This document shows positions 3,827 through 41,192 of a stretch of DNA of 48,519 nucleotides, one piece after another. The first letter of the stretch is position 1. Every line of letters begins with the position of its first letter. The DNA is taken from positions 1 to 48,519 of the forward strand of contig CAZWYN010000001.1 in NCBI GenBank assembly GCA_964638575.1. The letters are read 5' to 3'. The notes under the pieces are model-generated. The model saw nothing but the letters and a program-made list of their open reading frames with translations. It did not search any database and had not been told where the DNA came from. The stretch is from an uncultured Pseudomonadales bacterium. Its GTDB lineage: Bacteria > Patescibacteriota > Microgenomatia > UBA1400 > MFAQ01. Position numbers and translations under genes: made by a program.

Positions 3827-5215
3827 TTACAAGGCTAACAAGATTCCTACGATCGCGAGTAATAGTCCTCCACCAAAGGCTGCGATTCCGGGAAGATCAA
3901 AGATACCGGCTTCCGGAAGAATTGTCGGTGTTGGTGTCGTCGTTACCACCGTCACCACTGTTTGTGTCGGTGTTGGTTCTGATACCGTCGGTGCGGAAGT
4001 GACCACCACTGTTTGTGTCGTAGTTACACAGGTACAATCATCTTCAGCCAGACAAGCCGCGGTTCGGCATTTACTCGTTGTGGTATCACAGGTTAGTCCG
4101 GTTGCACACTCGGCGTTGGTGGTACAGGTATTGTTACATCCAACCACTGTGCTTACAGTAAGATCCTTAACCAAATTCAGTGTTCCACCCGGGAATGTTA
4201 CTTTTCCAGTATTAGTAATTACTGTACCGTTAGCAACTCCCTCACTAGCCTTTACCCTGAAGTTAAATTTCTTTGTTTCGGCAGGACTAATTGTAGTGTT
4301 GCATGTTAGTTCCGTGTCTGTTGCACTCCAAGTACATCCGGCACTGGCATCCATAAATGTGACCGGCATGTCTTTCAATGAGTCTTTAATTACGACACTG
4401 GTAGCATTCGCCGTACCCGTATTTGTCAGCGAAATTGAATAAACGTATATCTGGCTCTTAGACACAGCACTCATCTCAGACGTCAGTGTATAAGTTCCAG
4501 CCACATTTTCCGTCTCGTTCTTAAAGGCGGTCTTGCTTCCTGAAAGAGTTATGACAATCGGAGGTTCAACTCTTAAGCTATTTAGCCCTGTAAAGGTCTG
4601 GCTACCCAAAGTAGCAATCGCTGTGTTATCAATAGTAGAAGCTGCTGTAAAATCTCCCGTTACCTTCACCCTGAAATATTTTTCTATACTTTGTCCGGCT
4701 GTGAGGTTGAAAGCGGCACAACTATATTTTCTTGTCGCAGCATCAAAACTACAACTCTGGCTAGCTGGTGAGTCAACGAACGTCAGCTTGTCCAAATTTC
4801 CCCCAGTCAGAGTATCACTCAAAACCACTCCGCTTACAGTGTCAACTCCAGCATTTTTTACCTGAATTCTGTATACAAAAGTAGCACCCATCGTCGCCAT
4901 GTCTGTATCGGTTTTTATGGTGTAACCCTCAGTTTTTGTAGCATCATCTACGTATGTCGAGGCTTTCTTCACCACGGTCACGTTCGTTTCCACAGCCGTC
5001 GCTGTTCCGACCACTGTACAAGCAGGGTCACCAACCCACTGAATTCCGGTAGGAGTTACTGCTCCAATTGGTTCTGCTGCTGCGGGTTCACTCTCTGGCG
5101 CAGTCGGAGCCACGGCTTCTCGAGTAGAAAGCTGAGTCGCCACGTAAATCGAAGCACCTCCAAGAAGAATCACAATTAGTACAAGGGCTATGGCTAGTAT
5201 TTTTTTCTTGTTCAT
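3827..5215 (-). CDS. Cell-surface protein: N-terminal signal/anchor, two DUF11-like repeat domains, 8-Cys module, Thr/Val/Pro stalk, C-terminal LPEAG + hydrophobic sorting-like tail
   Basis: The N-terminus is MNKKKILAIALVLIVILLGGASIYVA. Two beta-rich repeats have the DUF11-type pattern (FVYRIQVKNAGVDTVSGVVLSDTL... and YVYSISLTNTGTANATSVVIKDSL...). A Cys-rich block GCNNTCTTNAECATGLTCDTTTSKCRTAACLAEDDCTC follows. The tail is ...TILPEAGIFDLPGIAAFGGGLLLAIVGILLAL. Confidence 0.6.
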   Translation of the reverse strand: MNKKKILAIALVLIVILLGGASIYVATQLSTREAVAPTAPESEPAAAEPIGAVTPTGIQWVGDPACTVVGTATAVETNVTVVKKASTYVDDATKTEGYTIKTDTDMATMGATFVYRIQVKNAGVDTVSGVVLSDTLTGGNLDKLTFVDSPASQSCSFDAATRKYSCAAFNLTAGQSIEKYFRVKVTGDFTAASTIDNTAIATLGSQTFTGLNSLRVEPPIVITLSGSKTAFKNETENVAGTYTLTSEMSAVSKSQIYVYSISLTNTGTANATSVVIKDSLKDMPVTFMDASAGCTWSATDTELTCNTTISPAETKKFNFRVKASEGVANGTVITNTGKVTFPGGTLNLVKDLTVSTVVGCNNTCTTNAECATGLTCDTTTSKCRTAACLAEDDCTCVTTTQTVVVTSAPTVSEPTPTQTVVTVVTTTPTPTILPEAGIFDLPGIAAFGGGLLLAIVGILLAL

Positions 5216-5220
5216 TTATC

Positions 5221-7089
5221 TTATGGTGTAGTACTAACTTGTGCTTCAAACTGATAACTCCCAGGTGATCCAACTAGATAATCCGAGTAACTTGATACTT
5301 TTGCGACAGTCGAACTTGCAGATATCCAATTTCCGGGAATATTATTTACATGCACTCTAAACTGTGCTTTCAGATTATCGAGACTTCCTGTTACCGAGAA
5401 TTTAAGCAAATCACCCACCTTCAAACTTTGTAGCTGAGTTGTTGTTAGAGGTGTGGTTGAATACACCCCATTTACTGCCTTATATATTTTGACATCTACA
5501 CACGCCCCCACAACCGTCGTTGCCGCTTTATATCCAACTACAACGTCAAAATCGTTAAAGTCATAGTTTGCGTCCAACTGTCCTCTGGTATTATTATCGA
5601 CTCCCTGAATGGTATCCGCCCAACACTGGAAGGGGGAACTAACCCCTGATGTCGTATAAATTCCAAAGCTACTTAATGCCGATGGCGTTATTCTTAAACT
5701 AATATCCCTTAACTCACCATATCTTCGACAGCTTCCTCCTGAAGGATTAATGTAACCCAAGGAGTTTGTTGCTTCGTTTCCCAACTTTATGGTAACTGTA
5801 TAGGTTCCTGGTTGGACAACTGCGTCAAAATTATTGTCGTCAACTTTTGTTACGGCTGTACCAGTTCCAGTTCCAGCCAAAGCAACCGTTGTTCCGGCGC
5901 TCGCTCCCGTAAGATGAATGCGTACTGTTCCCGCCGTTGTAAAGTTTATGGTGTTAATTTTGCTTCTGTCAGGATTACAAATCAGTTGGTTCTCTTGGCT
6001 ACTCGTCGCCCCCGGTATATATGTGTATGCCACACACACATCAGTTCCACCGACTGGTGCTGTTGGTGTTGCGGTTGGCACAGTTGTTGGTGCTGCGGTT
6101 GGCGCAGCTGTTGCCGTTGGAACCACCGGAGTACACGGACCCCACTCTCCACATGCTGGCCTTGACGCAATTCCTAGCGAAATACAAGTTCTTGTACCAG
6201 CCACATTTGCAATACCGGAAGTACAGCCAGATGTCTGAGCGGTTACACACTCACAACTCTGTGTTGGTGTCGGTGTTGTTGCGGCAGCACAACTGGTATT
6301 ATCTACACAACTCGAAGAAGGACAAGCCTGGGTATAACCAACGGTTGTTGTTGATGAAACACAAACACTCCCGGAACAATTTCGAACGGTACAAGTTTTT
6401 GTAGAGGGAGTAGCTGTTGGTGTTGGTTGGGTCGTACAAGTTGCATCTGGAGTACAGTAATAACCTGCAAAGGAGGTTCCTGCAGCCTGAACCTTACACC
6501 TCTCACCTGTCAGACAGCCTGCAGCAGCTCCACATGTTCCTTCTTTATCGGCGGCACATCTACTTCCGGCCAAAGGTTCACTCTCTGGTGCCGTAGGGGC
6601 CACTGCTTGTCTGGTCGACAACTGATTGGAAACATAGTAAGCTGCTCCAGCCACACCAATAACTAATAGCAAAGCCACAATACCCCCAACTATCGGAAGT
6701 ATTTTTTTCTTGGGTTTTTCTGCCGGCATTGATACTTCTTCGGGAGCAGGTGTTGGCGCCGAAAAAGGTTCCGATGAGGGGATGGTCGTCGTTGTCGTCG
6801 TGGTCGTTATCGGTTCTGGTTGAGGAGTAGGCGTAGACAAAGGTTCTGGACTTGGCCACGGCGTTATCGGAGCCGTTTCGGCCGGTGGAGTCATCGTCTC
6901 GGCGGGAGTAGTCACTGTTTCTTCTGTGGGTGCAACCACTGGTTCGGTATAAGTCGTTGTCGTCGTGGTCGTTATGGGAGTTGGGGCTGGAGTCGGGGAT
7001 TCAACAGGGGTTATGTCTTCGGCCGCCTTGGGAACAACCGGAGTCGTACCCGAAACCAAAGGCTGATTAATTTTATTTTGATCGTCCAT
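5221..7089 (-). CDS. Large membrane-anchored surface protein: Pro/Thr-rich N-terminal extension, TM anchor, 18-Cys region, DUF4114-like and beta-sandwich C-terminal domains
   Basis: 622-aa ORF. The TM segment KKKILPIVGGIVALLLVIGVAGAAYYV is preceded by about 120 aa of P/T/E-rich sequence. The post-anchor motif NQLSTRQAVAPTAPESEP is shared with the neighbouring gene. The stretch QLDANYDFNDFDVVVGY resembles the DUF4114 signature. An alternative internal ATG at 6729 would give a classical signal-anchor. Confidence 0.5.
   Translation of the reverse strand: MDDQNKINQPLVSGTTPVVPKAAEDITPVESPTPAPTPITTTTTTTYTEPVVAPTEETVTTPAETMTPPAETAPITPWPSPEPLSTPTPQPEPITTTTTTTTIPSSEPFSAPTPAPEEVSMPAEKPKKKILPIVGGIVALLLVIGVAGAAYYVSNQLSTRQAVAPTAPESEPLAGSRCAADKEGTCGAAAGCLTGERCKVQAAGTSFAGYYCTPDATCTTQPTPTATPSTKTCTVRNCSGSVCVSSTTTVGYTQACPSSSCVDNTSCAAATTPTPTQSCECVTAQTSGCTSGIANVAGTRTCISLGIASRPACGEWGPCTPVVPTATAAPTAAPTTVPTATPTAPVGGTDVCVAYTYIPGATSSQENQLICNPDRSKINTINFTTAGTVRIHLTGASAGTTVALAGTGTGTAVTKVDDNNFDAVVQPGTYTVTIKLGNEATNSLGYINPSGGSCRRYGELRDISLRITPSALSSFGIYTTSGVSSPFQCWADTIQGVDNNTRGQLDANYDFNDFDVVVGYKAATTVVGACVDVKIYKAVNGVYSTTPLTTTQLQSLKVGDLLKFSVTGSLDNLKAQFRVHVNNIPGNWISASSTVAKVSSYSDYLVGSPGSYQFEAQVSTTP
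6788..6810. repeat. 23-nt perfect direct repeat, copy 1 (gtcgttgtcgtcgtggtcgttat), encoding ITTTTTTT on the minus strand
   Basis: The string is identical to 6953-6975, read directly from the sequence. Confidence 0.9.
6953..6975. repeat. 23-nt perfect direct repeat, copy 2
   Basis: The string is identical to 6788-6810. Both copies lie in the P/T-rich N-terminal extension of the 622-aa ORF. Confidence 0.9.
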
Positions 7090-7151
7090 GCGTTTAAGTA
7101 CGGTCCATTAAACAGGGCCTGTCTACACTATAAAGAAGATTTGGTAATTTA

Positions 7152-8525
7152 TCAATCTCTCCACCATTTTTTTGATGTTCGTCCAAAGATGAATAATATA
7201 ATTCCCAGTATTCCCATTAAAATAGTAAAGTCCAACGCTCCGGTTTCCTCTAATGTTCCCGAACTGGTTGCCGGCATACTTGGTTCCTTAGTTGGTGTAG
7301 CCGACACGGTTCCTGTCGGTGAAATAGGTGAAACGGTAATCGTCGCTGAAGGTGTTGCTGTAAATGCCGGCAAACCCGCCGTACTATCTGACGCCAAAAC
7401 GGTAAAAGTTCTGATTACCTTCTGAAATATATTATTTTCATCGGTATACTCCAGTGTCAGAGTGTGCACTCCAGGTTCTAAATCTTGAGGAGGAGTCCAC
7501 TTCCAAACGCCGTCTTTATCGGCCTTAATAATCTGTGTCAGTTCAATCGGAGAGTTTACTGTAACTCTAATGGTGGTTCCGGGGGTCGCTTTTCCCGCAA
7601 ACTCTGGTGAACTGGTGGCAATCATCTCCCCGTTTATTGCCGGATTCGTAATTATCATCGAACCAGCCGCCTCGGTTGCTTCTGGTGCTAGAACGGGAGC
7701 CGCTTCTTCGGTGATATTTTTAAAACCCCCACTTTTTATATCGGACTCGACCAAAGTTCCCGATCCTGTTGCCACAGTCGTCTCCACAAAACTTTGATTT
7801 TTTCCTAATACGATGTCGGGTACAGGTTTGGTTTTTTCGGTATTAGTAATCGCTGTTGCGGTTCCCGAGATGCCCGCCTGAACAAAAATTGAGACAAGTG
7901 ACGTCTTGGGATCATACGTCAAAACCGCTCCGTCTTTGTCTCGCGATAAGGCCAAGTTTAGTCTCCAAGATCCATTGTTTGTCATTGCCGACAGAGTCTC
8001 CCCGCCCTGAACCTCGACGTAAACAATCGCGTTGTTTACGGGACTGGAATCAGCCCCAATTACTTTTCCACTTATGACGTCTTCAGGAGGTGCAATCACT
8101 TGTTTCCCCGTTCGCACTTCAAAAGGTTTTCCGGAGTCATCGTATGTCTGAGATCCCGATCCAATCATAAAATAAATAGTCTTGTCCGGATTTAATCCAG
8201 TTACTTTTACATAATGATTGGTATACCCCTGAGAACTTCCTGATATTTGATCACGGATATCACCAGCAGGTGTCGTGATTTTGGTTGGATTCTCCGAGTA
8301 ACTTAGATATCCCGTCACCGGCGTATCAGTTGTCCAGCTGACAGTGAAAGTATTTGCTCCTCGATCGGATATCTTTACGTTTTTTGGAGCCTCTGTCGGC
8401 CCTGCTTTAGTCAAAATACCCTGACGGTTATTTACGAGAACCACACCCGCAACCAGACCTCCTAATAATATTAGGACCCCGAGGGCTGTTGGTATTTTCT
8501 TGGCCATCAGGCCTGTTTTATTCAC
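7152..8525 (-). CDS. Surface protein with FN3-like, carboxypeptidase-regulatory-like and Ig-like domains and a C-terminal LEETG sortase-type sorting signal
   Basis: The N-terminal anchor is MAKKIPTALGVLILLGGLVAGVVLV. PKNVKISDRGANTFTVSWTTDTPVTGYLSY is fibronectin-III-like. ISGKVIGADSSPVNNAIVYVEV resembles a CarboxypepD_reg domain. The tail LEETG-ALDFTILMGILGIILFIFG-RTSKKWWRD has the motif, hydrophobic stretch and basic end of a sorting signal. The track start at 8525 is a GTG; an ATG at 8507 is at least as likely. Confidence 0.6.
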   Translation of the reverse strand: MNKTGLMAKKIPTALGVLILLGGLVAGVVLVNNRQGILTKAGPTEAPKNVKISDRGANTFTVSWTTDTPVTGYLSYSENPTKITTPAGDIRDQISGSSQGYTNHYVKVTGLNPDKTIYFMIGSGSQTYDDSGKPFEVRTGKQVIAPPEDVISGKVIGADSSPVNNAIVYVEVQGGETLSAMTNNGSWRLNLALSRDKDGAVLTYDPKTSLVSIFVQAGISGTATAITNTEKTKPVPDIVLGKNQSFVETTVATGSGTLVESDIKSGGFKNITEEAAPVLAPEATEAAGSMIITNPAINGEMIATSSPEFAGKATPGTTIRVTVNSPIELTQIIKADKDGVWKWTPPQDLEPGVHTLTLEYTDENNIFQKVIRTFTVLASDSTAGLPAFTATPSATITVSPISPTGTVSATPTKEPSMPATSSGTLEETGALDFTILMGILGIILFIFGRTSKKWWRD

Positions 8526-8844
8526 TTATTTGTATTTGTGTAGTTGCCGAACCGGTAGACTCCGGTATCACTGGCTCAACTGTCTCGGTTATTTCAGGTG
8601 TTGGGGTAGTAATCAATAGTAACCCCATCTCGGCTTCGGTATACACAGTTCTCCTTTCGAGATTATCAATTACTGTTTGGTTGATTGCACCATCTAAAGA
8701 TTTAATAGCTTTTGCTTGCTGTGTTGTCGTCTGGCTTTTTGTCGAGGCAGAGTAGATCTGGTAAGCCACTATTCCTCCCACAATAGACAGCCCCATCACT
8801 CCTACCAATAATATATAAGAAGATAGTGTTCTGGTTGTTTTCAT
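8518..8844 (-). CDS. Small bitopic membrane protein, function unknown (occupies the position after pilO)
   Basis: 108 aa with one N-terminal TM segment (LSSYILLVGVMGLSIVGGIVAY). Its ATG overlaps the pilO-like stop (ATGA at 8841-8844). Confidence 0.45.
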   Translation of the reverse strand: MKTTRTLSSYILLVGVMGLSIVGGIVAYQIYSASTKSQTTTQQAKAIKSLDGAINQTVIDNLERRTVYTEAEMGLLLITTPTPEITETVEPVIPESTGSATTQIQISE

Positions 8845-9500
8845 TGTTTGTCGGTATAGAAGTAAAAGGTCATTTGACCCGTAGCATTAAGTGAATCTTC
8901 CGCCCTAGTCAAACCAATTTGTTTGGTAAGAGAGACGCTATTAAGTAAAACCAACCTATCCATATTTTCAATATCTTTAAGAAAAATAATCACATCTTGT
9001 GGTTTCCCTCTTACAGAAAACGTTAACTGGTTAGACAAAACATTTGCACTCGGCTTAATTAATTTTGTAGTCAATTCACCCCCAGTTTTTTCTTCACCAA
9101 GAAGAGAAATTCCTGGAAAAACCAACGAATCAAGAATCAAATTATTCTTTTTTGCCACATATTCTAATCTAAGGGAACTATCGACATAGGAAAAGTAGTC
9201 CGGAACAGCCTCGTCAAAAAGTTTCAACTTGCCCCTGAACGTATTTAGTTGATTCTGTGCATTTAAAAGTTGGACAATTTTGTTGTCGGCTTTTTTATTA
9301 ATTACTTCCTGGTCTTCAATTTTTTTCTGTAGAGAGACAATATTAGTAAGTGTTGGCCTTATAGCAGCAAATATCAATATAGTTATGGTAAATACCGATA
9401 AAATTACCTCCAAAGATGCTCGGATCTCCGGACGTTTATACATCAAACTAACTTTTTGAAAGTAAAGAGAGTATTTTTCGTTGTTTAGTATGCTCGCCAT
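8841..9500 (-). CDS. pilO: PilO-like type IV pilus alignment-complex protein
   Basis: It has a short cytoplasmic N-terminus, one TM segment (LEVILSVFTITILIFAAIRP), a coiled coil (LQKKIEDQEVINKKADNKIVQLLNAQNQL) and a C-terminal ferredoxin-like part (TFSVRGKPQDVIIFLKDIENMDRLVLLNSVSL). Its start overlaps the stop of the PilN-like gene by 1 nt. Confidence 0.6.
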   Translation of the reverse strand: MASILNNEKYSLYFQKVSLMYKRPEIRASLEVILSVFTITILIFAAIRPTLTNIVSLQKKIEDQEVINKKADNKIVQLLNAQNQLNTFRGKLKLFDEAVPDYFSYVDSSLRLEYVAKKNNLILDSLVFPGISLLGEEKTGGELTTKLIKPSANVLSNQLTFSVRGKPQDVIIFLKDIENMDRLVLLNSVSLTKQIGLTRAEDSLNATGQMTFYFYTDKQ

Positions 9501-10045
9501 TATTTAAAAGTAATTTGAACACCAAACTTTACCCCTCCAGTAGTTTGATCAAAGCTGGTTTCTTTCATAGTAATTGTTGCCACCCCAGGCATTCTCTTTA
9601 CTCCGCTAATAAACTGGGCAAATCCGTACTCTGATTGTGCTTTTCCGACAACCATTAAACCGTTTTTATCAAGAGATAGGCTGTCAAGGGAAGTTCCCAC
9701 GGGTAAAATCTGTGTCAGCCCATCAATTTTTGATGCAAAAACAAGACCGCTTCTTTGTGAAGTCTCCACGGGAAGCTGTTTGGCCAAAACTTTTCGCATC
9801 TCTACTTCCACTTCGGCATAAGCCGCAATCTGAGCTTCTTTTTGTACCAAAACTTCCCCTAAATCGTCAAGTTTTTTGTCAAAATAAAACCGGGATGCGA
9901 ATGCTAACAACACCACAAACTCGGTCAAGACTACCAAAACCCTGCCTGCTGTTGTAATCCACTTTAAAATTTTCCCTGCGGTAGAGAACTCGAAACTATC
10001 CTTTGGCAATAAGTTAATACTAGAAACACTATGAGCAGTAGCCAC
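9500..10045 (-). CDS. pilN: PilN-like type IV pilus alignment-complex protein
   Basis: The N-terminal SSINLLPKD matches the conserved PilN INLLP peptide. One TM segment (VLVVLTEFVVLLAFASRFYF), a coiled coil and a small alpha/beta domain follow. The start codon is GTG. Confidence 0.65.
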   Translation of the reverse strand: MATAHSVSSINLLPKDSFEFSTAGKILKWITTAGRVLVVLTEFVVLLAFASRFYFDKKLDDLGEVLVQKEAQIAAYAEVEVEMRKVLAKQLPVETSQRSGLVFASKIDGLTQILPVGTSLDSLSLDKNGLMVVGKAQSEYGFAQFISGVKRMPGVATITMKETSFDQTTGGVKFGVQITFK

Positions 10046-10067
10046 ACCTTCAGTGTACCAAAAATCC

Positions 10068-10310
10068 TTACTTTTTGGGGGAGATTTTTTTGGACAAACG
10101 AGCCTTTATTCTGTCGGCCTTACCTTTTTTCAAAACACCTTTTTTTGCGGCTTTGTCTACCATTGAGAAAGCAACAGACAGTGTTTCGACGGAGAGAACT
10201 TTCTTAAATGTGTCGATGGCCGACTTAGCCTTAGTCTTAGTAGCTTTGTTAAATCCGGCTTTTTTTACGTCGGATCTGAGTTTTTTTATTGCTGATTTTG
10301 TTATTGGCAT
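10068..10310 (-). CDS. rpsT: 30S ribosomal protein S20
   Basis: MPITKSAIKKLRSDVKKAGFNKATKTKAKSAIDTFKK... is an 80-aa, very basic protein with the typical S20 N-terminus. Confidence 0.9.
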   Translation of the reverse strand: MPITKSAIKKLRSDVKKAGFNKATKTKAKSAIDTFKKVLSVETLSVAFSMVDKAAKKGVLKKGKADRIKARLSKKISPKK

Positions 10311-33497: not shown

Positions 33498-34127
33498 ATG
33501 AAAACAGTTGGACAACTTCTTCACTCTGAAAGAAACAGAAAAAATATTTCTATTTCAGAACTTTCTTTGGCCACCAAAATTGATGGCAAATATATCGAAG
33601 CTCTAGAAGCAGATCGTTACGATCTTCTACCCTCCGAAACTTTCGCCAAGGGCTTTATCAGAAACTTATCGTTGAGCCTTGGTAGCGATCCTGAAGATTT
33701 TATTGCTGTTTTTAGGAGGGATTATCGTAATCCAGAACTCAAAAAAAATATTGTTAAACAGCACAAAAAATCGAGACTTAATCTTCCCCACATGTCTTCA
33801 CAACTCTTTCCAATAATTCTGGGTGTAATTGTTTTTATTATTTATCTTATTTTTCAGTTTAGAGTTATTCTCACTCCTCCTCCCCTCACTGTGAATCGTC
33901 CCCTTGAGGGCGCCGTTCTTTCCTCTCCAGTCGAAATTCAGGGCTCAACTTCTACAGACTCCTTGGTTACCATAAACGGAGACAATGTCGTCAAACCAGA
34001 TCAAAACGGTGCTTTTCAGGTGAGCATCAGCCTTCCTGTTGGTGAAATCTCCGTAAAAATAAAAGCCACCAATCGTTTTGGGAGGGTCACCTCTACCGAT
34101 CTCCCCCTTACCATCATCTCCAACTAA
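33498..34127 (+). CDS. RodZ-like helix-turn-helix membrane protein with Ig-like C-terminal domain
   Basis: VGQLLHSERNRKNISISELSLATKIDGKYIEALEADRYDLLPSETFAKGFIRN is the HTH_25/RodZ-type N-terminus. One TM segment (LFPIILGVIVFIIYLIFQF) and a beta-rich ectodomain follow. Confidence 0.6.
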   Translation: MKTVGQLLHSERNRKNISISELSLATKIDGKYIEALEADRYDLLPSETFAKGFIRNLSLSLGSDPEDFIAVFRRDYRNPELKKNIVKQHKKSRLNLPHMSSQLFPIILGVIVFIIYLIFQFRVILTPPPLTVNRPLEGAVLSSPVEIQGSTSTDSLVTINGDNVVKPDQNGAFQVSISLPVGEISVKIKATNRFGRVTSTDLPLTIISN

Positions 34128-34160: not shown

Positions 34161-34460
34161 ATGACTTTGTCACAGATTGTTTCGCTAATATCTGTCTCGG
34201 TTCTCACCGTCGTTGCCGTTATTGTCGGTATTGAATTGATCTTGGTTCTCAAAGAACTAAAAAGCTCTCTAACAAGAGTCAATCGCACTCTTGATACCGC
34301 CGATGAGACCCTCCAAAAACTTTCTCAGCCAGCAGTTGGTCTCTTTGCCATTATCGAAGGTTTCCGTCAGTCCGGAAAAATTGTCGAAATGGTCCAGCAC
34401 CTACTTGGCAAAGACAAACCGTCAGCTCCGGTAAATCTTGAAGAAGATGAGCCTCAATAA
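34161..34460 (+). CDS. DUF948-like small membrane protein
   Basis: An N-terminal TM segment (ISVSVLTVVAVIVGIELILVL) is followed by KELKSSLTRVNRTLDTADETLQKL, as in DUF948 proteins. Confidence 0.45.
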   Translation: MTLSQIVSLISVSVLTVVAVIVGIELILVLKELKSSLTRVNRTLDTADETLQKLSQPAVGLFAIIEGFRQSGKIVEMVQHLLGKDKPSAPVNLEEDEPQ

Positions 34461-34746
34461 TAACCAAGACCACCACTTTTCCTCCTTTGCTATGGGAGCA
34501 ACCATAGGCGTTATTGCCGCCCTACTTTTTGGCACCGAAGAGGGCCGAAAAGTCGTCAAAGAAGTCCTGAATGCCATTCCTGAAAAATACAAAAATATTC
34601 CAGGCAATCTTCTTCCTCACGAGAAACCCGAAGAAGCACTTCGGACTCCGATAATCTCCCCCCAAGAAACTCCTCACCACACTACCTATGATTTTGAAGC
34701 ACCGCCACCACCCCCTCCCGTCGTTAATCCTTTTCGTCCTCAATAA
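34447..34746 (+). CDS. YtxH-like protein
   Basis: FAMGATIGVIAALLFGTEEGRKVVKEV resembles the YtxH motif (G...G...alL.AP.sG.e.R). The track start at 34438 is a TTG; the first ATG is at 34447. It overlaps the DUF948-like gene. Confidence 0.45.
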   Translation: MSLNNNQDHHFSSFAMGATIGVIAALLFGTEEGRKVVKEVLNAIPEKYKNIPGNLLPHEKPEEALRTPIISPQETPHHTTYDFEAPPPPPPVVNPFRPQ

Positions 34747-34802: not shown

Positions 34803-36641
34803 ATGACCATCAACGACATCAGGAGCAAATTCCTCTCTTTTATGGAAAAAAGAGGACATGCCATTATTCCTTCGGCATCACTAGTTCCCGAAGGCGATGC
34901 CACCACCCTTTTTACCTCTGCCGGTATGCAACCAATGATGCCCTATCTCCTTGGTCAAAAACATCCCTTAGGAACCCGTCTTGTTGATTCCCAAAAATGT
35001 TTCCGTTCCGGAGATATTGACGAGATAGGAGACAACCGCCACACCACTTTTTTTGAGATGCTTGGCAACTGGTCACTAGGAGATTACTTCAAAGACAAAC
35101 AACTTGAATGGTTTTTTACCTTCCTGATAAACAAAAACGATGGTTTGGGTCTAGATCCCAAAAAGCTCTTCGTCACCGTTTTTGAAGGAGGCTCTGGTGT
35201 GGGTAAAGATGTGGAAGCTGTTTCCATTTGGCAAGATCTGTTTAAAAAAGTAGGAATCAGCGCTAAGGAGGGTGAACGTATTTTTGCTTATCCCGCCAAT
35301 AAAAACTGGTGGTCAAGATCGGGTACCCCCGAAAATATGCCTGCCGGAGAACCAGGAGGTCCAGACTCCGAGGTCTTTTTTGATTTTGGTGAAAATCTGA
35401 AACTCCACGAAAAATCGAGTTTTAAAAAAGAAAAATGTCATCCCAACTGTGACTGCGGTCGTTTTATGGAGATTGGCAACTCTGTTTTTATGCAGTATCT
35501 AAAAAAAGAAGATGGCACCCTTGAAGAGCTCCCTCGTAAAAACATCGACTTTGGTGGTGGTCTTACCCGCCTGGAGGCTGCCGTCAACTCCGATCCGGAT
35601 ATATTCAAGATCTCCAGTCTCCTCCCTTTGATTTCGGAAATTGAAAAAATTTCCGGAAAATCTTACTCTGATGTCGAAAACCAACCTCTCATGCGCGTGA
35701 TTGCCGATCATCTCACGGCTGCTACCTTCCTCATCAAGGATGGTGTTTTTCCAACCAACAAAGCCCAGGGATATGTACTCAGAAGGATACTTCGTCGTGC
35801 CGCTGTTAAACTATATTTTCTGACTTCCGATTTTGAAACTCTCGAAAGACTTGCCGAACTTAGTTTTCTAGTCGCTCAGATTTATTCTCCTCTTTATTTC
35901 GATATCAAAAAGGACACCCCGGTTCTTCATGAGACCATAAAGACTGAAATTAAAAGATTTAGTGTTTCACTGGACAAAGGGATTAAAGAACTCCAAAAAA
36001 ATCCCAAAATTGATGGTAAAGCCGCCTTTGACCTCTATCAAAATTATGGTTTCCCGCTGGAAATTACCGCTGAAATACTATCCAGAATGAATATAAAAAT
36101 CGACACGAAGCAATTTGAAGCTGAGTTTGAAAAACACAAACAACTTTCTCGTTCTGCCTCAGCCGGCATGTTCACCGGAGGCCTTGCCGACCACTCCAAA
36201 ACAGTCACGGCGTATCACACAGCCACCCATCTGCTTCATGCTGCACTCCGTCAAATCTTAGGTACCCATGTTAGCCAAAAAGGATCCAATATCACCTCGG
36301 AAAGGCTCAGATTTGATTTTTCTCATCCGGAAAAACTCACAGATAGAGAGATTCAATTAACCGAAGAGTTAATTAATAAAGCCATCTCCGCTAAACTTCC
36401 GGTTACCAGGGAAGAAACAAAAAAAGACGACGCGATTGCGCAGGGAGCCATGGCTTTCTTTGGCCAAAAATATCCTGACGTGGTGAGTGTTTATACGATT
36501 GGCAACAAAGAAAACACCTTTTCCAAGGAAATCTGTGGCGGACCCCATGTGACTAATACGAAAGAACTTGCTAAGATAAAGATAGTCAAACAGGAGTCAT
36601 TGGGCGTTGGGACACGTCGCCTTTACTTACAGTTTGTTTGA
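34803..36641 (+). CDS. alaS: Alanine--tRNA ligase, short form (612 aa, no C-Ala domain)
   Basis: IRSKFLSFMEKRGHAIIPSASLVP, TLFTSAGMQPMMPYLLG and FFEMLGNWSLGDYFK mark the catalytic core. The editing-domain zinc motifs are HTATHLLHAAL and CGGPHV. Confidence 0.92.
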   Translation: MTINDIRSKFLSFMEKRGHAIIPSASLVPEGDATTLFTSAGMQPMMPYLLGQKHPLGTRLVDSQKCFRSGDIDEIGDNRHTTFFEMLGNWSLGDYFKDKQLEWFFTFLINKNDGLGLDPKKLFVTVFEGGSGVGKDVEAVSIWQDLFKKVGISAKEGERIFAYPANKNWWSRSGTPENMPAGEPGGPDSEVFFDFGENLKLHEKSSFKKEKCHPNCDCGRFMEIGNSVFMQYLKKEDGTLEELPRKNIDFGGGLTRLEAAVNSDPDIFKISSLLPLISEIEKISGKSYSDVENQPLMRVIADHLTAATFLIKDGVFPTNKAQGYVLRRILRRAAVKLYFLTSDFETLERLAELSFLVAQIYSPLYFDIKKDTPVLHETIKTEIKRFSVSLDKGIKELQKNPKIDGKAAFDLYQNYGFPLEITAEILSRMNIKIDTKQFEAEFEKHKQLSRSASAGMFTGGLADHSKTVTAYHTATHLLHAALRQILGTHVSQKGSNITSERLRFDFSHPEKLTDREIQLTEELINKAISAKLPVTREETKKDDAIAQGAMAFFGQKYPDVVSVYTIGNKENTFSKEICGGPHVTNTKELAKIKIVKQESLGVGTRRLYLQFV

Positions 36642-38815
36642 CGACTTCAGTCATGAACTTAGTAAATCTATTTGGAAACAAGTCAAAAACCAAGGAACCG
36701 GACTATTTTTTGGCCATCGAGATTCATGAATCTCTCATCAAAACCGCCCTCTGGGAAGTTGCCGAGGGAACTCCCTCTGTCATTAAAGTGGGATCATTCG
36801 AGTCGTGGGCAGACGAAGACTCTCTTATAAATGGGGTCGACGCCTCACTCGAGCAAGCAGTCAAAGACATCGATTCTGAGCCCCGAAAGGTTATTTTTGG
36901 ACTTCCTGATTCCTGGATTAATGACGGCAAAGTTCACCCTTCAAAAACAAAGCTAATAAGTCGTCTAGTCAAAGAACTAGGACTTGATCCCATTGGTATG
37001 GTTCCCATAAACTCCGCCATTGCTCATTACATGAAAAATCTTGAAGGCATTCCCCCCACGGCTATTCTTCTTGAAATCTATACCACTAAAGTCGTTGTCT
37101 CTGTTATCGAAAAAGGCGAAATAACCTCATCGGAAGAAACTGCCAGGTCAGATGATCTAGCCCAAGACGTCGAGGAAGGACTAACCGTTATTGGCAAGGA
37201 AAAGCTACCGGCTCGCTTTATCCTCACCAACGGCGGAGCACTTGAGGAAGAAGAACAGCACATTACCTCTCATCCTTGGCAGGAACGGCTACCTTTTCAG
37301 CACATGCCCAAAGTTGAAGCCTTACCCGTAGACTTTAGTATTCGGGCAATTGCCCTCACCGGGGGGACTGAAGCTGTTCAGTACCTTACCGGAAAGACAA
37401 GTGAAGAGCCACACGAAGAGAGTCTTCCTCACGAAGAAACCAATATTTATGTTCCGGAAGTATCACCGACATCCATTGATGAGCTCGGTTTTTCGTACGA
37501 AGAGGCCGACGCCCCTTCTTCTGTAGAGAAAGCTCCCCCTGAAACATATCTCGAACCATCCATCGACATCTCGGAACCAGAATATGCTCTTCCCCAAGAA
37601 GAACCTACCTTTACTCCAAAACCAAAAACTAAACTCGCTTTTTCCCTACCAACTTTTCCAAAATTTAGTCTTCCCGACATAAAAGTAAATAAACTTTCTT
37701 GGTTATATTTACTAGCCCTACCCTTGTTGTTGGGTTTGGGCTACGTCCTCTATCTTTTTACAGGACAGGCAATCGTCTCCATAGCCTTCAATCCTCAAAA
37801 AATCACTGGTCAATACACCATCTCCATTGCCGAAAGTTCCGTTTCCGCCACACCTACCTTGCTGGCCACTAAAAAAACGGTTTCTGGTTCAGCTAAAGAA
37901 CAAATTCCTACCACTGGGGACGCAACTGTAGGAGACAAAGCTTCCGGAGCAATTACCATAGCCAACAAATCCACAGCCCCCATTGTTATTAAAGCTGGCT
38001 CCACCATTCTTTCCGAAAATAGCAAATATGCGTATACCGTAAATGATGCGGTGACCGTCGCTTCCAAGAGTGCTGATGTCGGCATCGTTCAGGGAGCATA
38101 TGGAATTGCGCCGGGGGTAAAAGTAACGGCTGCCAAGATTGGTGCCGACTACAACCTTCCCAAAAACTCAAATTTCTCTGTTGATAACTACTCAAAAAAC
38201 ACCATCATCGCCGTCGCTGACGCAGACTTCTCCGGTGGAACGTCCAGAGCAGTTCGTGCAGTTTCCAAAGCCGATCAAGACAAACTTCTTTTGCTGGCCA
38301 CCGAGAAAATAAAGACGCAGATTCAAACCTCAACTCAGTCACAAACTCCCGGATTTAAATCTCTGGCGCTTTCTGAATTTGCCTTCACTAAAAAAACTTT
38401 TGACAAGAATATTGGCGAAGAAGCCACAGTTCTAAATTTGGATCTTGAAGGATCGGTTGATACTCTCGTTTACTCCGAAGATAATCTTTATCAACTAATT
38501 GCGGCTCAGCTCACCCCCCAAATACCCGCAGGGTCGGAAATTTTTCCCGGAAACACCGCCATCATACTCGAAGAACCAGTTAAAAAAGACGGCTACTACG
38601 AAGCAAAAGTAAATGTAGAGACCAGCCTATTCCCCAAGATTGATGAAGAAAAATTAAGAGCAGCTATTGGGGGAAAGTCCGTAACCGGAATTCGCCCTTA
38701 CTTCTCTACCATTCAAGGATTCAGTCAGCTTAGGGTAAAAATTGCCCCCAAAATTCCAATTTTCACCAACTTCCTTCCCCTAAAAAACATCAAGTTTGAA
38801 CTAGTGGAGGACTAA
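36638..38815 (+). CDS. Bitopic membrane protein: degenerate PilM/FtsA-like (ASKHA) cytoplasmic domain, acidic linker, TM, baseplate-J/gp47-like ectodomain
   Basis: FLAIEIHESLIKTALWEV, ILLEIYTTKVVVSVIEKG and IALTGGTEAVQYL sit in the order of the ASKHA phosphate-1, phosphate-2 and adenosine motifs. The TM segment is LSWLYLLALPLLLGLGYVLYLFTG. In the ectodomain, GDATVGDKASGAITIANKSTAPIVIKAGSTIL...GVKVTAAKIGADYNLPKNSNFSV...ADFSGGTSRAV resembles Baseplate_J proteins. The TTG at 36638 overlaps the alaS stop; the first ATG is at 36653. Confidence 0.45.
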   Translation: MTTSVMNLVNLFGNKSKTKEPDYFLAIEIHESLIKTALWEVAEGTPSVIKVGSFESWADEDSLINGVDASLEQAVKDIDSEPRKVIFGLPDSWINDGKVHPSKTKLISRLVKELGLDPIGMVPINSAIAHYMKNLEGIPPTAILLEIYTTKVVVSVIEKGEITSSEETARSDDLAQDVEEGLTVIGKEKLPARFILTNGGALEEEEQHITSHPWQERLPFQHMPKVEALPVDFSIRAIALTGGTEAVQYLTGKTSEEPHEESLPHEETNIYVPEVSPTSIDELGFSYEEADAPSSVEKAPPETYLEPSIDISEPEYALPQEEPTFTPKPKTKLAFSLPTFPKFSLPDIKVNKLSWLYLLALPLLLGLGYVLYLFTGQAIVSIAFNPQKITGQYTISIAESSVSATPTLLATKKTVSGSAKEQIPTTGDATVGDKASGAITIANKSTAPIVIKAGSTILSENSKYAYTVNDAVTVASKSADVGIVQGAYGIAPGVKVTAAKIGADYNLPKNSNFSVDNYSKNTIIAVADADFSGGTSRAVRAVSKADQDKLLLLATEKIKTQIQTSTQSQTPGFKSLALSEFAFTKKTFDKNIGEEATVLNLDLEGSVDTLVYSEDNLYQLIAAQLTPQIPAGSEIFPGNTAIILEEPVKKDGYYEAKVNVETSLFPKIDEEKLRAAIGGKSVTGIRPYFSTIQGFSQLRVKIAPKIPIFTNFLPLKNIKFELVED

Positions 38816-38816
38816 C

Positions 38817-39569
38817 ATGCTCTACGGATACAAAAAGGCTACGGCGAAAAATCCGCATCCTGGACGAAAAATCCCCATATATCTAAAAACCGTGCCAACA
38901 CTGATTTCTGCTCTTGGCCTTGGAATTCTTGGTGCCGTAGCTTATCCCGTGGTAAGTTACCAATTAAAAGACTTCCAGCCGTTTAGTCTAGTGAACACCG
39001 GTCTTCTCTCCCCAGTCTATTACGAATCAAAAGCAAGTTCGGATCGTGAACCAAAGATTTTGGGTGACTTGGACTATACTAAAGCCAGTAGCTGGTTCCC
39101 TGGAGACACTCAAAATAATCCCTTTACTGCCCCCAAGATAGACGATGGCAGCATCCCCGAATTTTATTCCATCTCTATTCCTTCTCTCGAGCTTGCCGAT
39201 GTTCAAGTAAGTTTATTTGACGAAGATCTGGCAAAACACCTGGTCCAGTATCCTCAAACCGCGCTTCCCGGGGAACTCGGTTCGCCTGTAATTTTTGGCC
39301 ACTCTACCCTTCCACAATTTTATAATCCCTTAAAATACACCACTATTTTTTCCAATTTACCGAAAATGAAACTTGGTTCGGACGTCTTTGTCAAATACAA
39401 GGACGCAGAATATACTTATCGGGTTACCAGTATTGTTGAGGTAAAACCATCGGAGCTCTGGGTACTAAAACAAAACTACAATGCTAAAACTATCAAATTA
39501 ATTACTTGTGTTCCTCCCGGAACCACTCTCCGTCGTTTGGTGGTGGAAGCAACTCTTATTGAAAATTAA
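38817..39569 (+). CDS. Sortase (membrane-anchored cysteine transpeptidase)
   Basis: An N-terminal TM segment is followed by the catalytic His in SPVIFGHSTL, Cys in TIKLITCVPPGT and Arg in LRRLVVEATL, which is the canonical sortase triad order. The ATG is 1 nt after the upstream stop, with a GGAGGA SD inside the upstream gene. Confidence 0.85.
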   Translation: MLYGYKKATAKNPHPGRKIPIYLKTVPTLISALGLGILGAVAYPVVSYQLKDFQPFSLVNTGLLSPVYYESKASSDREPKILGDLDYTKASSWFPGDTQNNPFTAPKIDDGSIPEFYSISIPSLELADVQVSLFDEDLAKHLVQYPQTALPGELGSPVIFGHSTLPQFYNPLKYTTIFSNLPKMKLGSDVFVKYKDAEYTYRVTSIVEVKPSELWVLKQNYNAKTIKLITCVPPGTTLRRLVVEATLIEN

Positions 39570-39571
39570 AT

Positions 39572-39970
39572 ATGAAAACAATACTTTGTCTCGATCTTGG
39601 TACCGCTCATACAGGCATCGCCATCTCTCGCGAGGGAATCCTTGCCGAACCTTTGGCTACCATTTTTGAGTCAAAAAAAGATAAACTTCTCGGTAAACTC
39701 CTCCCCTTTATAGCCAAAAACGATCCTGGAACCATCGTTATTGGTGTTCCTCATCATGGTCCGTTGGTTGAAACAGCCTCAGATCTAAAAAAAGAGCTTC
39801 AGAAAGTTTTCTCCGGTGAAATTGTTTTGTTTTCCGAAGACTTTTCTTCCCGTTCGGCCAGAAGTCTCCTGAAGGAAACGGGCAAAACCTTAATAAGAAG
39901 AAAAGAGAGTGAGCATCAAACGGCCGCCGCTATCATTTTGGAGGATTATCTGGACAACGCCAATAATTAA
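39572..39970 (+). CDS. ruvX: Putative pre-16S rRNA nuclease / Holliday junction resolvase-like RuvX (YqgF)
   Basis: ILCLDLGTAHTGIAIS, the size (132 aa), the C-terminal SEHQTAAAIILEDYL and the position before mltG all fit. Confidence 0.85.
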   Translation: MKTILCLDLGTAHTGIAISREGILAEPLATIFESKKDKLLGKLLPFIAKNDPGTIVIGVPHHGPLVETASDLKKELQKVFSGEIVLFSEDFSSRSARSLLKETGKTLIRRKESEHQTAAAIILEDYLDNANN

Positions 39971-39991: not shown

Positions 39992-40198
39992 ATGTTCAAG
40001 AATATTATTGCTCCAGTCCAGGCCTGGCTCCTTTCCAAGGGCTCTTGCGTCGGTTGTGGCACTCCACTCGTTGAGGGTGAAAGTGTTCCTTCAAAAAAGG
40101 TCAAAGACTGTAATCAGGTCACTTGCAAATGTGGTCGTATCTTTATTTATAATCCCAAGACAAAAACTTATCGCCGTGCCCTTTTAAGTGAAGTATAA
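39992..40198 (+). CDS. Small zinc-ribbon protein (CxxC ... CxC)
   Basis: 68 aa with GSCVGCGTPL and VTCKCGRIF, four Cys in ribbon spacing. It occupies the slot between ruvX and mltG. Confidence 0.45.
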   Translation: MFKNIIAPVQAWLLSKGSCVGCGTPLVEGESVPSKKVKDCNQVTCKCGRIFIYNPKTKTYRRALLSEV

Positions 40199-41192
40199 AT
40201 TAATGTTTAAACGCCTTTTTACTGTCTTCACTTTCCTTTTTATTGCTTTTTTTGGTTGGTTTTTTCAAGCTACTAGACCAGTCACTTATAAACAGACATC
40301 TGCCACTCAGTTTGAAATTAAGTCCGGTTGGAGTATTGACCGCATTGGTCAAGAGTTAAGTACCGCCAAACTAATAAGATCTAGAGCTGCCTTCAAAATT
40401 ACCGTTATTGTTCGTGGTATTTCCAACCGAGTTCAGGCCGGTTTTTTCAGACTTTCACCCAACATGACCACTACCGAAATAGCCAATAGTCTGACTCACG
40501 CCAGCACCAAAACAATAAGAGTCACTATCCCCGAAGGTCTTCGTCGTCAAGAAATCGCCCTTATCTTCGAAAGTGCCTTTAAAAATGCCGAAGGTAAGAC
40601 CTTTACTACTACCGAGTTTATTTCCAAAACCGCCGACAAAGAGGGGAGACTTTTCCCGGATACTTACGACTTTGATCCCAAAGCCACTACTTCCGCTATC
40701 ATCAGCCGCCTAGAAAAAAGATATTTGGATATCTTAGTTGAGGCGAAAGTCTCGGAAGCAGACACAGACAAAGTAACCATAATAGCCTCTCTCCTGGAAA
40801 GGGAAGCGGCTTCGTCCGCCGAAATGCCCGAAATCGCTGGTGTCATTGAAAATAGAACCAATGCCGGCTGGCCGCTCCAAATTGATGCCACTGTTCAGTA
40901 CGCCTTGTCTACCATCCGCTGCCGAAAGCTTGACTGCGATTGGTGGCCAAAAAGTCTTATCAGAGCAGATCTTCAAATTAACTCACCCTACAATACCTAT
41001 CTCAATCAGGGCTTACCTCCCAAACCAATCAGTAATCCCGGGAAAGCCGCCCTCATGGCAGCTGCTTCTCCTAAGAAAACATCTGCCTGGTTTTATCTTC
41101 ACGATTTAAAGGGAAATATTCATTTTGCAAACACCATCGAAGAACACAATAAAAACGTTTGTATCTACCTTCAAAAAGACTGCGGCAACTGA
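40188..41192 (+). CDS. mltG: Endolytic murein transglycosylase MltG (YceG family)
   Basis: An N-terminal TM segment is followed by a LysM-like region (FEIKSGWSIDRIGQELSTAKLI), the catalytic ASLLEREAA, and YNTYLNQGLPPKPISNPGKAALMAAASP. The track start at 40188 is a GTG; an ATG at 40203 is equally plausible. Confidence 0.85.
   Translation: MKYKLMFKRLFTVFTFLFIAFFGWFFQATRPVTYKQTSATQFEIKSGWSIDRIGQELSTAKLIRSRAAFKITVIVRGISNRVQAGFFRLSPNMTTTEIANSLTHASTKTIRVTIPEGLRRQEIALIFESAFKNAEGKTFTTTEFISKTADKEGRLFPDTYDFDPKATTSAIISRLEKRYLDILVEAKVSEADTDKVTIIASLLEREAASSAEMPEIAGVIENRTNAGWPLQIDATVQYALSTIRCRKLDCDWWPKSLIRADLQINSPYNTYLNQGLPPKPISNPGKAALMAAASPKKTSAWFYLHDLKGNIHFANTIEEHNKNVCIYLQKDCGN

Follow-up and report, generated by a model that had tools for sequence, protein, structure and literature searches.

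A Microgenomates membrane protein that joins a minimal actin-like domain to a baseplate-J-like ectodomain is encoded next to a sortase

Introduction

What would a bacterium do with a protein that resembles a degenerate actin on one side of the membrane and a phage baseplate component on the other? The question is raised by an uncharacterised gene, here called X, which lies directly upstream of a sortase gene on contig CAZWYN010000001.1 (assembly GCA_964638575.1; positions 1 to 48,519, forward strand). This 48,519-nucleotide (nt) stretch, hereafter the window, is recorded as an uncultured Pseudomonadales bacterium with the GTDB lineage Patescibacteriota; Microgenomatia; UBA1400; MFAQ01. Within the Candidate Phyla Radiation (CPR), the Microgenomates form a large uncultivated group whose envelopes and contacts with hosts are poorly understood. 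An earlier interpretation made from the letters of the window (the sequence-only reading) had seen in X a PilM/FtsA-like domain, a transmembrane helix and a baseplate-J-like domain coupled to a sortase. Here we describe the architecture and distribution of X, its pairing with the sortase and what the protein may do.

Results

X has a new protein architecture

We modelled X with AlphaFold2 from an alignment of 62 homologues (mean predicted local distance difference test score, pLDDT, 79.8). The gene and the parts of its product are as follows.

36653..38815, plus strand: gene X, a 720-residue bitopic membrane protein (open reading frame, ORF; homologue N-termini align to the ATG)
36701..37390, plus strand: minimal cytoplasmic ASKHA domain, residues 17-246 (AlphaFold2 pLDDT 81-91; Foldseek)
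37391..37693, plus strand: cytoplasmic acidic, Pro-rich linker, residues 247-347 (AlphaFold2 pLDDT, composition)
37481..37504, plus strand: short linear motif ELGFSYEE within the linker (column frequencies)
37694..37765, plus strand: transmembrane helix, residues 348-371 (AlphaFold2 helix 349-370)
37766..38812, plus strand: extracellular, beta-rich baseplate-J-like domain, residues 372-720 (AlphaFold2, Foldseek, Pfam)

AlphaFold2 and Foldseek bear out the three-part layout and the helix at nt 37694-37765 described from sequence, and the earlier remark that no characterised protein has such an architecture still holds: the architecture of X is new. A 725-residue product had been assumed, starting from the TTG at 36638. 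This start is possible, but the ATG at 36653 is likelier because homologues begin MNLxNLFGNK, which gives 720 residues.

The linker is largely disordered (pLDDT below 50 at residues 249-263 and 291-345) and contains 17 Glu, 4 Asp and 16 Pro in 101 residues, with a net charge of -13 and basic residues just before the membrane helix. In columns drawn from 100 diverse family members, an [L/F]GF motif stands out amid the variable linker (G279 95%, F280 99%); the aligned GF is absent from loci L048 and L050, and [LFIV]GF occurs elsewhere in the proteins of L049 and L052. X is predicted to be oriented with its N-terminus inside and its C-terminus outside, because lysines flank the N-terminal side of the membrane helix (positive-inside rule). 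An NCBIfam scan of X gave no match, and a sequence-profile search of PDB with the family alignment returned only a spurious picornavirus VP4 (E 0.79). PADLOC, run on X and the sortase, gave no match and no sign of a defence system. X was also considered as a sortase substrate and rejected, its C-terminus (…FLPLKNIKFELVED) having no LPxTG, hydrophobic and basic sorting signal.

The ectodomain resembles a complete baseplate wedge protein J

We searched PDB by Foldseek with a separate AlphaFold2 model of the ectodomain (pLDDT 83.7). The search recovered whole J-type wedge chains over 338-375 columns (E 1e-5 to 1.5e-4, probability 1.0), and the chains matched were the following.

diffocin, 8v3w_0
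phi812, 9euf_I
cyanophage A-1(L), 8kea_b
Mu, 9ki1_O
phiCD508, 9gb2_G

Among viral structures in BFVD, Baseplate J-like proteins were matched at E values down to 1e-8. Pfam Baseplate_J (PF04865) matched residues 428-530 of the window X with 18.1 bits (cut-off 21.1; E 0.0017) and was found in 34 of the 62 family members at E<0.01 (best 1.2e-5). For some relatives a PF04865 assignment had been precomputed, a few bear the NCBI name "baseplate J/gp47 family protein", and PHROG baseplate families matched the ectodomain weakly. These whole-chain matches, together with the weaker Pfam signal, uphold the resemblance of the roughly 350-residue ectodomain to baseplate J/gp47 proteins that had been noticed earlier. 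Over its whole length the ectodomain is a remote homologue of the complete baseplate wedge protein J (Mu gp47 type).

The only other significant PDB match of the ectodomain was the beta-barrel domain of Streptomyces GlxA, so the "barrel" module of J also occurs in a cellular extracytoplasmic protein. GlxA is a membrane-anchored copper oxidase (5lxz, 4unm), aligned at E 5e-6 with 17-19% identity over 120-170 columns.

Proteins of the J class (P2 gpJ, Mu gp47, T4 gp6; PF04865) align over the whole 350-residue ectodomain. Unlike them, X is fused to a transmembrane helix and lies outside a cell rather than in a virion or contractile injection system, and it has no gpW/gp25, gpI, sheath or tube neighbours. 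The neighbours of X in the window are all housekeeping genes, with no gp25/W, I, sheath, tube, fibre or other baseplate gene among them.

The N-terminal domain is a minimal ASKHA module with degenerate nucleotide loops

By the order of secondary-structure elements in the AlphaFold2 model, the N-terminal domain consists of two beta-beta-beta-alpha-beta-alpha-beta-alpha halves that lack insertions of the 1B, 1C and 2B kind; its core elements are joined by loops of at most about 11 residues. Because the domain has only about 230 residues and short loops, it offers no room for an insertion of 80-100 residues and thus has no 1C subdomain. In crystal structures of PilM:PilN, 1C forms half of the PilN-binding groove.

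Foldseek against PDB returned 424 matches at E<=0.001; apart from four baseplate chains, the 50 listed were ASKHA proteins. Of those listed, PPX/GppA (2e-8) and EutJ (TM-score 0.56-0.58 normalised to the target; root-mean-square deviation about 4.3 A) rank at least level with PilM (2e-7), and FtsA reached 6e-7. EutJ, the N-terminal domains of PPX/GppA and BT_3980 are the best structural matches, similar in size and likewise free of extra subdomains. All of these are soluble, being enzymes or chaperone-like proteins, and their phosphate loops are intact, whereas X is membrane-tethered, has E/Q-I-x at the first loop and has no Gly-rich phosphate-2 loop.

Column frequencies in the 100 diverse members showed that the phosphate-1 D-x-G is replaced by E/Q-I-x (position 23: E 72%, Q 13%; position 25 variable) and that phosphate-2 is degenerate, positions 141-146 being variable with no Gly run. 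X proteins of the Daviesbacteria type are nearer to a canonical phosphate-1 (NIGS in FFAVNIGSTEV, LDI in FFALDIKNDF), which supports an ASKHA ancestry followed by degeneration. The degenerate actin/ASKHA fold and its two altered phosphate loops, as first read from the window, are therefore supported by the model, Foldseek and the column frequencies alike. The adenosine motif that had been called retained fared less well: its A-G-G-x-E is conserved (G237 99%, G238 97%, E240 99%) but lies within a predicted helix (residues 228-246), which makes its equivalence to the ASKHA adenosine loop doubtful. This GGxE is absent from X in loci L048-L052. A second motif, W..LPFxHxPKV, has invariant H217 and P219, and F215 is conserved at 99%.

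No match to PF11104 (PilM_2), PF14450 (FtsA) or PF05134 (T2SSL) was found for the window X at E<=1, and no ASKHA-family Pfam model (PilM, FtsA, GspL) matched any of 62 family members at E<=0.01. Nor were pil genes found beside X in any of 55 X-bearing loci. With no 1C subdomain, degenerate loops, no Pfam match and no pil neighbours, a PilM/FtsA identity for X is not supported. On these residues and loops, the domain is most likely a nucleotide-independent scaffold that binds a protein or peptide, rather than an ATPase.

X and the sortase form an ancestral pair within a housekeeping operon

A word-seeded search recovered 202 full-length homologues of X. A profile search covering 1.84 billion cluster representatives gave 8,094 matches at E<=1e-3, of which 1,719 reached E<=1e-30, and the best 150 were nearly all full length. 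Because full-length homologues reach down to 26% identity, the ORF is far beyond chance. The window belongs to a Collierbacteria-like member of the Microgenomates; among its nearest matches, at 95-96% identity, is Collierbacteria GW2011_GWA2_42_17. By name, the sources are Collier-, Woese-, Beckwith-, Gottesman- and Daviesbacteria and "Microgenomates group", and the family is labelled "hypothetical protein" or "baseplate J/gp47 family protein".

We compared 55 fetched X-bearing loci (L001-L055), 53 of them informative in having DNA downstream of X. The recurrent gene order was rnj-ftsK-rodZ-like (HTH_25)-small membrane proteins-alaS-X-sortase-ruvX-(66-aa protein)-yceG-rpoB-rpoC. alaS precedes X in 52 of the 55 (L039, L047 and L052 have no alaS match), and the sortase gene directly follows X in 51 of the 53 informative loci, with a gap of 0-56 nt in relatives. 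The pairing spans X identities from 96% to about 27-30% and occurs in Collier-, Woese-, Beckwith-, Gottesman- and Daviesbacteria. Synteny of X and sortase in relatives, which the sequence-only reading had named as its own test, is thus well established. Because the arrangement recurs across Microgenomates, the X-sortase pair is an ancestral feature of this group inside a housekeeping operon, with no recent insertion. The earlier wording, that the two genes are "inserted" in the alaS-ruvX-mltG block, was misleading. A recent insertion or horizontal transfer of X is ruled out by the flat GC content of the locus (0.42-0.47) and by synteny over the whole superphylum.

In two loci, X is broken into two or three overlapping ORFs (L011, 5923-8024; L047, 3-1985), one of these being Collierbacteria GW2011_GWA2_42_17 (95% identity); a frameshift or assembly error is the likely cause. 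Many public records of metagenome-assembled genomes with this locus are titled "uncultured Pseudomonadales", "Gammaproteobacteria" or "Spirochaetia" (L006, L007, L014-L016, L023-L026, L029-L030, L049 and others), and these titles on a Microgenomates-specific locus are probably wrong taxonomic labels.

Searches of the published literature found no description of the X family, nor of a sortase with such a partner. A protein-family survey of the CPR found a sortase family near ubiquitous in Microgenomates, and 35 mostly hypothetical families enriched there, of which 14 are predicted membrane proteins (Meheust 2019, PMC6744442); its text and the supplementary files covered do not mention a baseplate-like family. 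The distribution of X parallels that of the near-ubiquitous sortase family.

The sortase retains its catalytic residues and a conserved cytoplasmic tail

38817..39569, plus strand: sortase, 250 residues (Pfam Sortase 74.1 bits; TIGR01076)
38817..38888, plus strand: conserved N-terminal cytoplasmic tail of the sortase, MLYxYxKAT..NPxPG (48-sortase alignment)

The X stop codon (TAA, 38813-38815) is separated by 1 nt from the sortase ATG at 38817, and a GGAGG lies 8 nt upstream of that ATG, inside X. This close spacing suggests translational coupling from X to the sortase, and the two genes are probably co-transcribed. On the other side of X, the TTG at 36638 overlaps the alaS TGA (36639-36641), the first downstream ATG being that at 36653, and downstream of the pair the sortase TAA (39567-39569) precedes the ruvX ATG at 39572. 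All of these codon positions, with the overlap and spacing around X reported earlier, were confirmed in the ORF map and raw sequence.

The sortase comprises a cytoplasmic tail (residues 1-24), a transmembrane helix (about 25-47) and a catalytic domain (119-250). His162, Cys231 (in LITC) and Arg239/240 are all conserved in 48 homologues, and the enzyme is catalytically intact. With the 1-nt gap and the 51 syntenic loci, this bears out the coupling of X to a sortase. The enzyme passes the general profiles (PF04203, 74.1 against a cut-off of 26.6; TIGR01076, 53.6 against 39.35). Of the models for classes A-F in NCBIfam, the best was class C (54 bits, cut-off 160), and none passes.

Like Gram-positive housekeeping sortases (class A/E type), it has an N-terminal anchor, a His-Cys-Arg triad, a TLxTC-like LITC and LPxTG-like substrates; unlike them, it falls below every class cut-off and has a conserved cytoplasmic tail. 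Mean column identity over 48 sequences was 0.69 in the tail, 0.52 in the extracellular linker and 0.74 in the catalytic domain. The YxY/YY-K core of the tail is kept in loci of the Beckwith- and Gottesmanbacteria type and absent from the Daviesbacteria-type loci L050 and L052. In Daviesbacteria-type loci the missing tail motif coincides with an X that has no GGxE and, in L048 and L050, no aligned linker GF, a co-variation that is only suggestive. In the papers searched, no counterpart of X was found in described sortase systems, and the gene for the X-linked sortase is almost always coupled to X. The sortase is thus ordinary save for its conserved tail and its near-constant neighbour.

Candidate substrates share an operon with an orphan PilN-like protein

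9500..10045, minus strand: PilN-like protein with an N-terminal INLLP (Pfam PilN 25.2 bits)
7152..8525, minus strand: fn3/Big_13 surface protein with a C-terminal LEETG, transmembrane helix and basic tail; candidate sortase substrate
3827..5215, minus strand: DUF11/CLIPPER surface protein with a C-terminal LPEAG and hydrophobic end; candidate sortase substrate

Homologues of the fn3/Big_13 protein carry LTDAG, and those of the DUF11/CLIPPER protein LPDAG, LPETG or LPSAG. The INLLP codons of the PilN-like protein lie at 10004-10018 on the minus strand, and the peptide reads INLLP in 101 of 120 homologues, INLIP in 13 and VNLLP in one. The gene is preceded by rpsT, not pilM, here and in the relatives L056-L058, so the partner of the INLLP peptide must be encoded elsewhere. 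Retention of the peptide and absence of an adjacent pilM were thus correctly described from the window (INLLP or INLIP in 114 of 120 homologues). The further claim, that X is the only candidate partner in view, is not supported: a canonical PilM family co-localises with type IV pilus genes in the CPR (PMC6744442), and PilM is annotated in the type IV pilus locus of a closed Microgenomates genome (PMC7143001), so X is not the sole possible partner of INLLP. The pilN-pilO pair lies about 27 kb from X, behind rpsT. The PilN-like family gave 252 matches confined to close relatives in a word-limited search.

The operon (3827-10310, minus strand) runs from rpsT through the pilN-like and pilO-like genes and one for a 108-aa transmembrane protein to three or four surface proteins (fn3/Big_13, DUF11/CLIPPER) with LPxTG-like signals, an amine oxidase, DUF2298 and an LCP gene. 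The combination of pilN/pilO-like genes and sortase substrates without pilM is unusual and is conserved in Collierbacteria relatives (L056-L058). This substrate locus also contains murJ, in addition to the LCP gene.

Neighbouring genes

33498..34127, plus strand: RodZ-like protein with HTH_25 and a transmembrane helix; conserved between ftsK and alaS
34161..34460, plus strand: small membrane protein; conserved between ftsK and alaS
34438..34746, plus strand: second small membrane protein with a Pro-rich C-terminal tail (YtxH-like in relatives); conserved between ftsK and alaS
34803..36641, plus strand: alaS, short form, 612 residues (Pfam tRNA-synt_2c 357 bits, and tRNA_SAD)
39572..39970, plus strand: ruvX (yqgF) (Pfam RuvX 85.6 bits)
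39992..40198, plus strand: 68-aa CxxC...CxC (zinc-ribbon-like) small protein between ruvX and yceG
40188..41192, plus strand: mltG/yceG (Pfam YceG 244 bits)

The Pfam assignments of AlaS, sortase, RuvX and YceG are all far above their cut-offs. In the short AlaS, Pfam detects the catalytic tRNA-synt_2c and tRNA_SAD domains and nothing further C-terminal. The 68-aa ORF overlaps the GTG start of yceG, and a counterpart gene encoding 66-67 aa occupies the same ruvX-yceG position in the distant relatives L003 and L053-L055. In L048 (8148-10145) and L049, a 665-aa multi-pass membrane protein follows X, and ruvX and yceG are not downstream. Within alaS-yceG, promoter-like and terminator-like sites are no commoner than shuffling the sequence would give; one site of each kind stands paired before rpoB. 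An Rfam scan of the window returned nothing.

Discussion

X may be a dedicated transmembrane partner or scaffold of a housekeeping sortase for the anchoring of surface proteins. This reading, which is drawn from genomic context and is the one we favour, seems to us plausible though a little short of evenly balanced. The system would be one of surface anchoring with a novel accessory scaffold. In such a system the J-like ectodomain would form oligomers at the outer surface of the membrane, much as J proteins assemble in baseplates, and would hold the sortase, together with its LPxTG/LPxAG substrates, close to newly made peptidoglycan. The pseudo-actin domain would dock a short cytoplasmic peptide, for which the conserved N-terminal tail of the sortase is the best candidate, by analogy with PilM:PilN, FtsA:FtsN and MreB:RodZ. 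Such docking would tie anchoring to cell-wall growth; X is surrounded by the envelope and division genes ftsK, rodZ-like (HTH_25) and mltG.

Several observations weigh against this proposal. Adjacency and coupling are no proof of a partnership between X and the sortase, and, to our knowledge, known sortases need no such partner. The Daviesbacteria-type loci L048 and L049 have a full-length X and no sortase gene downstream. The co-variation between sortase tail and X covers two clades only, and the W..LPFxHxPKV motif of X does not co-vary with the tail, since it persists where the tail motif is absent. As to the ectodomain, the J chains matched by Foldseek have TM-scores of only about 0.22 and deviations above 25 A, despite probability 1.0 over the full length. 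The domain order is J-like; the mutual arrangement of the domains, and so a J-like oligomerisation, is not established. A tblastn search of the ectodomain against 50,697 phage genomes gave no match at E<0.01, so the relationship to J, with its Pfam score below the gathering cut-off, is visible only by profile and structure.

A wider and rather unlikely possibility is that X and the sortase act with the orphan PilN/PilO-like pair and the surface proteins of LPxTG type as a single undescribed, Microgenomates-specific envelope-spanning machine. In it, the cytoplasmic pseudo-actin hub would bind the short N-terminal tails of its bitopic partners and would be joined across the membrane to a ring or platform of domesticated baseplate wedge, where fibres or adhesins would be covalently assembled.

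X might instead be a domesticated baseplate-wedge surface structure, serving as a platform for host contact or as an anchor for sortase ligation, with the ASKHA domain as an inside-out regulator. J proteins connect baseplates to fibres, and the ectodomain is J-like over its full length. Such a role would suit the view that CPR bacteria are episymbionts relying on surface appendages (PMC6744442). K447 and K581, invariant in the Collier/Woese set, could act as acceptor nucleophiles, but both vary in the wider family, and X itself has no sorting signal. The window holds no other baseplate, sheath, tube or fibre gene. Host-contact proteins usually diversify, whereas this ectodomain is highly conserved (mean column identity 57% in the family alignment). 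On balance we find this reading improbable.

To a similar degree we doubt that X serves as a scaffold in the divisome or elongasome, where it would be a membrane tether of the FtsA or MreB kind with an ectodomain acting on the wall, would work with FtsK, the RodZ-like protein and MltG, and would have a sortase that is merely co-regulated with wall growth. The order rnj-ftsK-rodZ-like (HTH_25)-alaS-X-sortase-ruvX-yceG is fixed across Microgenomates, FtsA is among the Foldseek matches, and helix-turn-helix domains of RodZ bind MreB, itself an ASKHA protein. However, alaS-ruvX-mltG is an old housekeeping cluster, so adjacency within it says little about function. X is linked most tightly, and with the greatest conservation, to the sortase (1-nt gap; 51 of 53 loci), and a domain with neither 1C/2B nor nucleotide loops is unlikely to form FtsA- or MreB-like filaments.

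More doubtful still is the suggestion that X is a membrane-tethered PilM equivalent that docks the INLLP of the orphan PilN and, with sortase and substrates, forms a new envelope apparatus. The layout of X is most like the GspL/PilM-PilN class: both have a cytoplasmic actin fold without robust ATPase motifs, one transmembrane helix and an extracytoplasmic domain. In GspL and PilM+PilN the ASKHA module binds a short cytoplasmic peptide or domain of its partner, a likeness that X would share by analogy. PilM and FtsA are among the confident Foldseek matches (2e-7 to 6e-7), the PilN family keeps INLLP/INLIP with no pilM adjacent in the window or in L056-L058, and the pilN-pilO operon runs into sortase substrates while X is operonic with the sortase, an indirect link. 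Yet X is without the defining features of the class. Its 230-residue minimal domain has no 1C/domain-II insertion and so no 1C groove, PPX/GppA and EutJ score equally well or better, and no member among 62 matches a PilM, FtsA or T2SSL model of Pfam (PilM_2 and T2SSL included). X also differs in its 100-residue disordered linker and in an outer domain that is baseplate-J-like rather than ferredoxin-like. In the 55 loci it never adjoins pil genes, nor does it stand beside pilus or secretion ATPase genes (GspE/PilB type), its neighbour being a sortase in 51 of 53. X was present in all Microgenomates sampled, whereas the PilN-like protein was retrieved in close relatives only, by a word-limited search, and a canonical PilM is available in the CPR (PMC6744442) and in a Microgenomates type IV pilus locus (PMC7143001).

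The idea that the locus is an annotation artefact, or what is left of a prophage or tailocin, has nothing but the Baseplate_J similarity in its favour and is rejected as virtually impossible, given the housekeeping context, flat GC content, strict vertical conservation of a full-length ORF in thousands of genomes and the lack of other phage genes, PADLOC matches and phage tblastn matches.

We therefore return to X as a scaffold of the sortase and to what it would mean for the Microgenomates. X is as conserved as the neighbouring core genes and is paired with a near-universal sortase, and it is likely to be central to how these cells build their surface. Database labels that suggest a phage protein are corrected by this analysis. 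If the proposal is true, a dedicated transmembrane partner would be described here for a sortase for the first time, and X would clearly illustrate how an entire baseplate-wedge protein of phages can be taken over as the ectodomain of a cellular protein. The two proteins, with a few peptides, give a testable handle on the envelope biology of the CPR.

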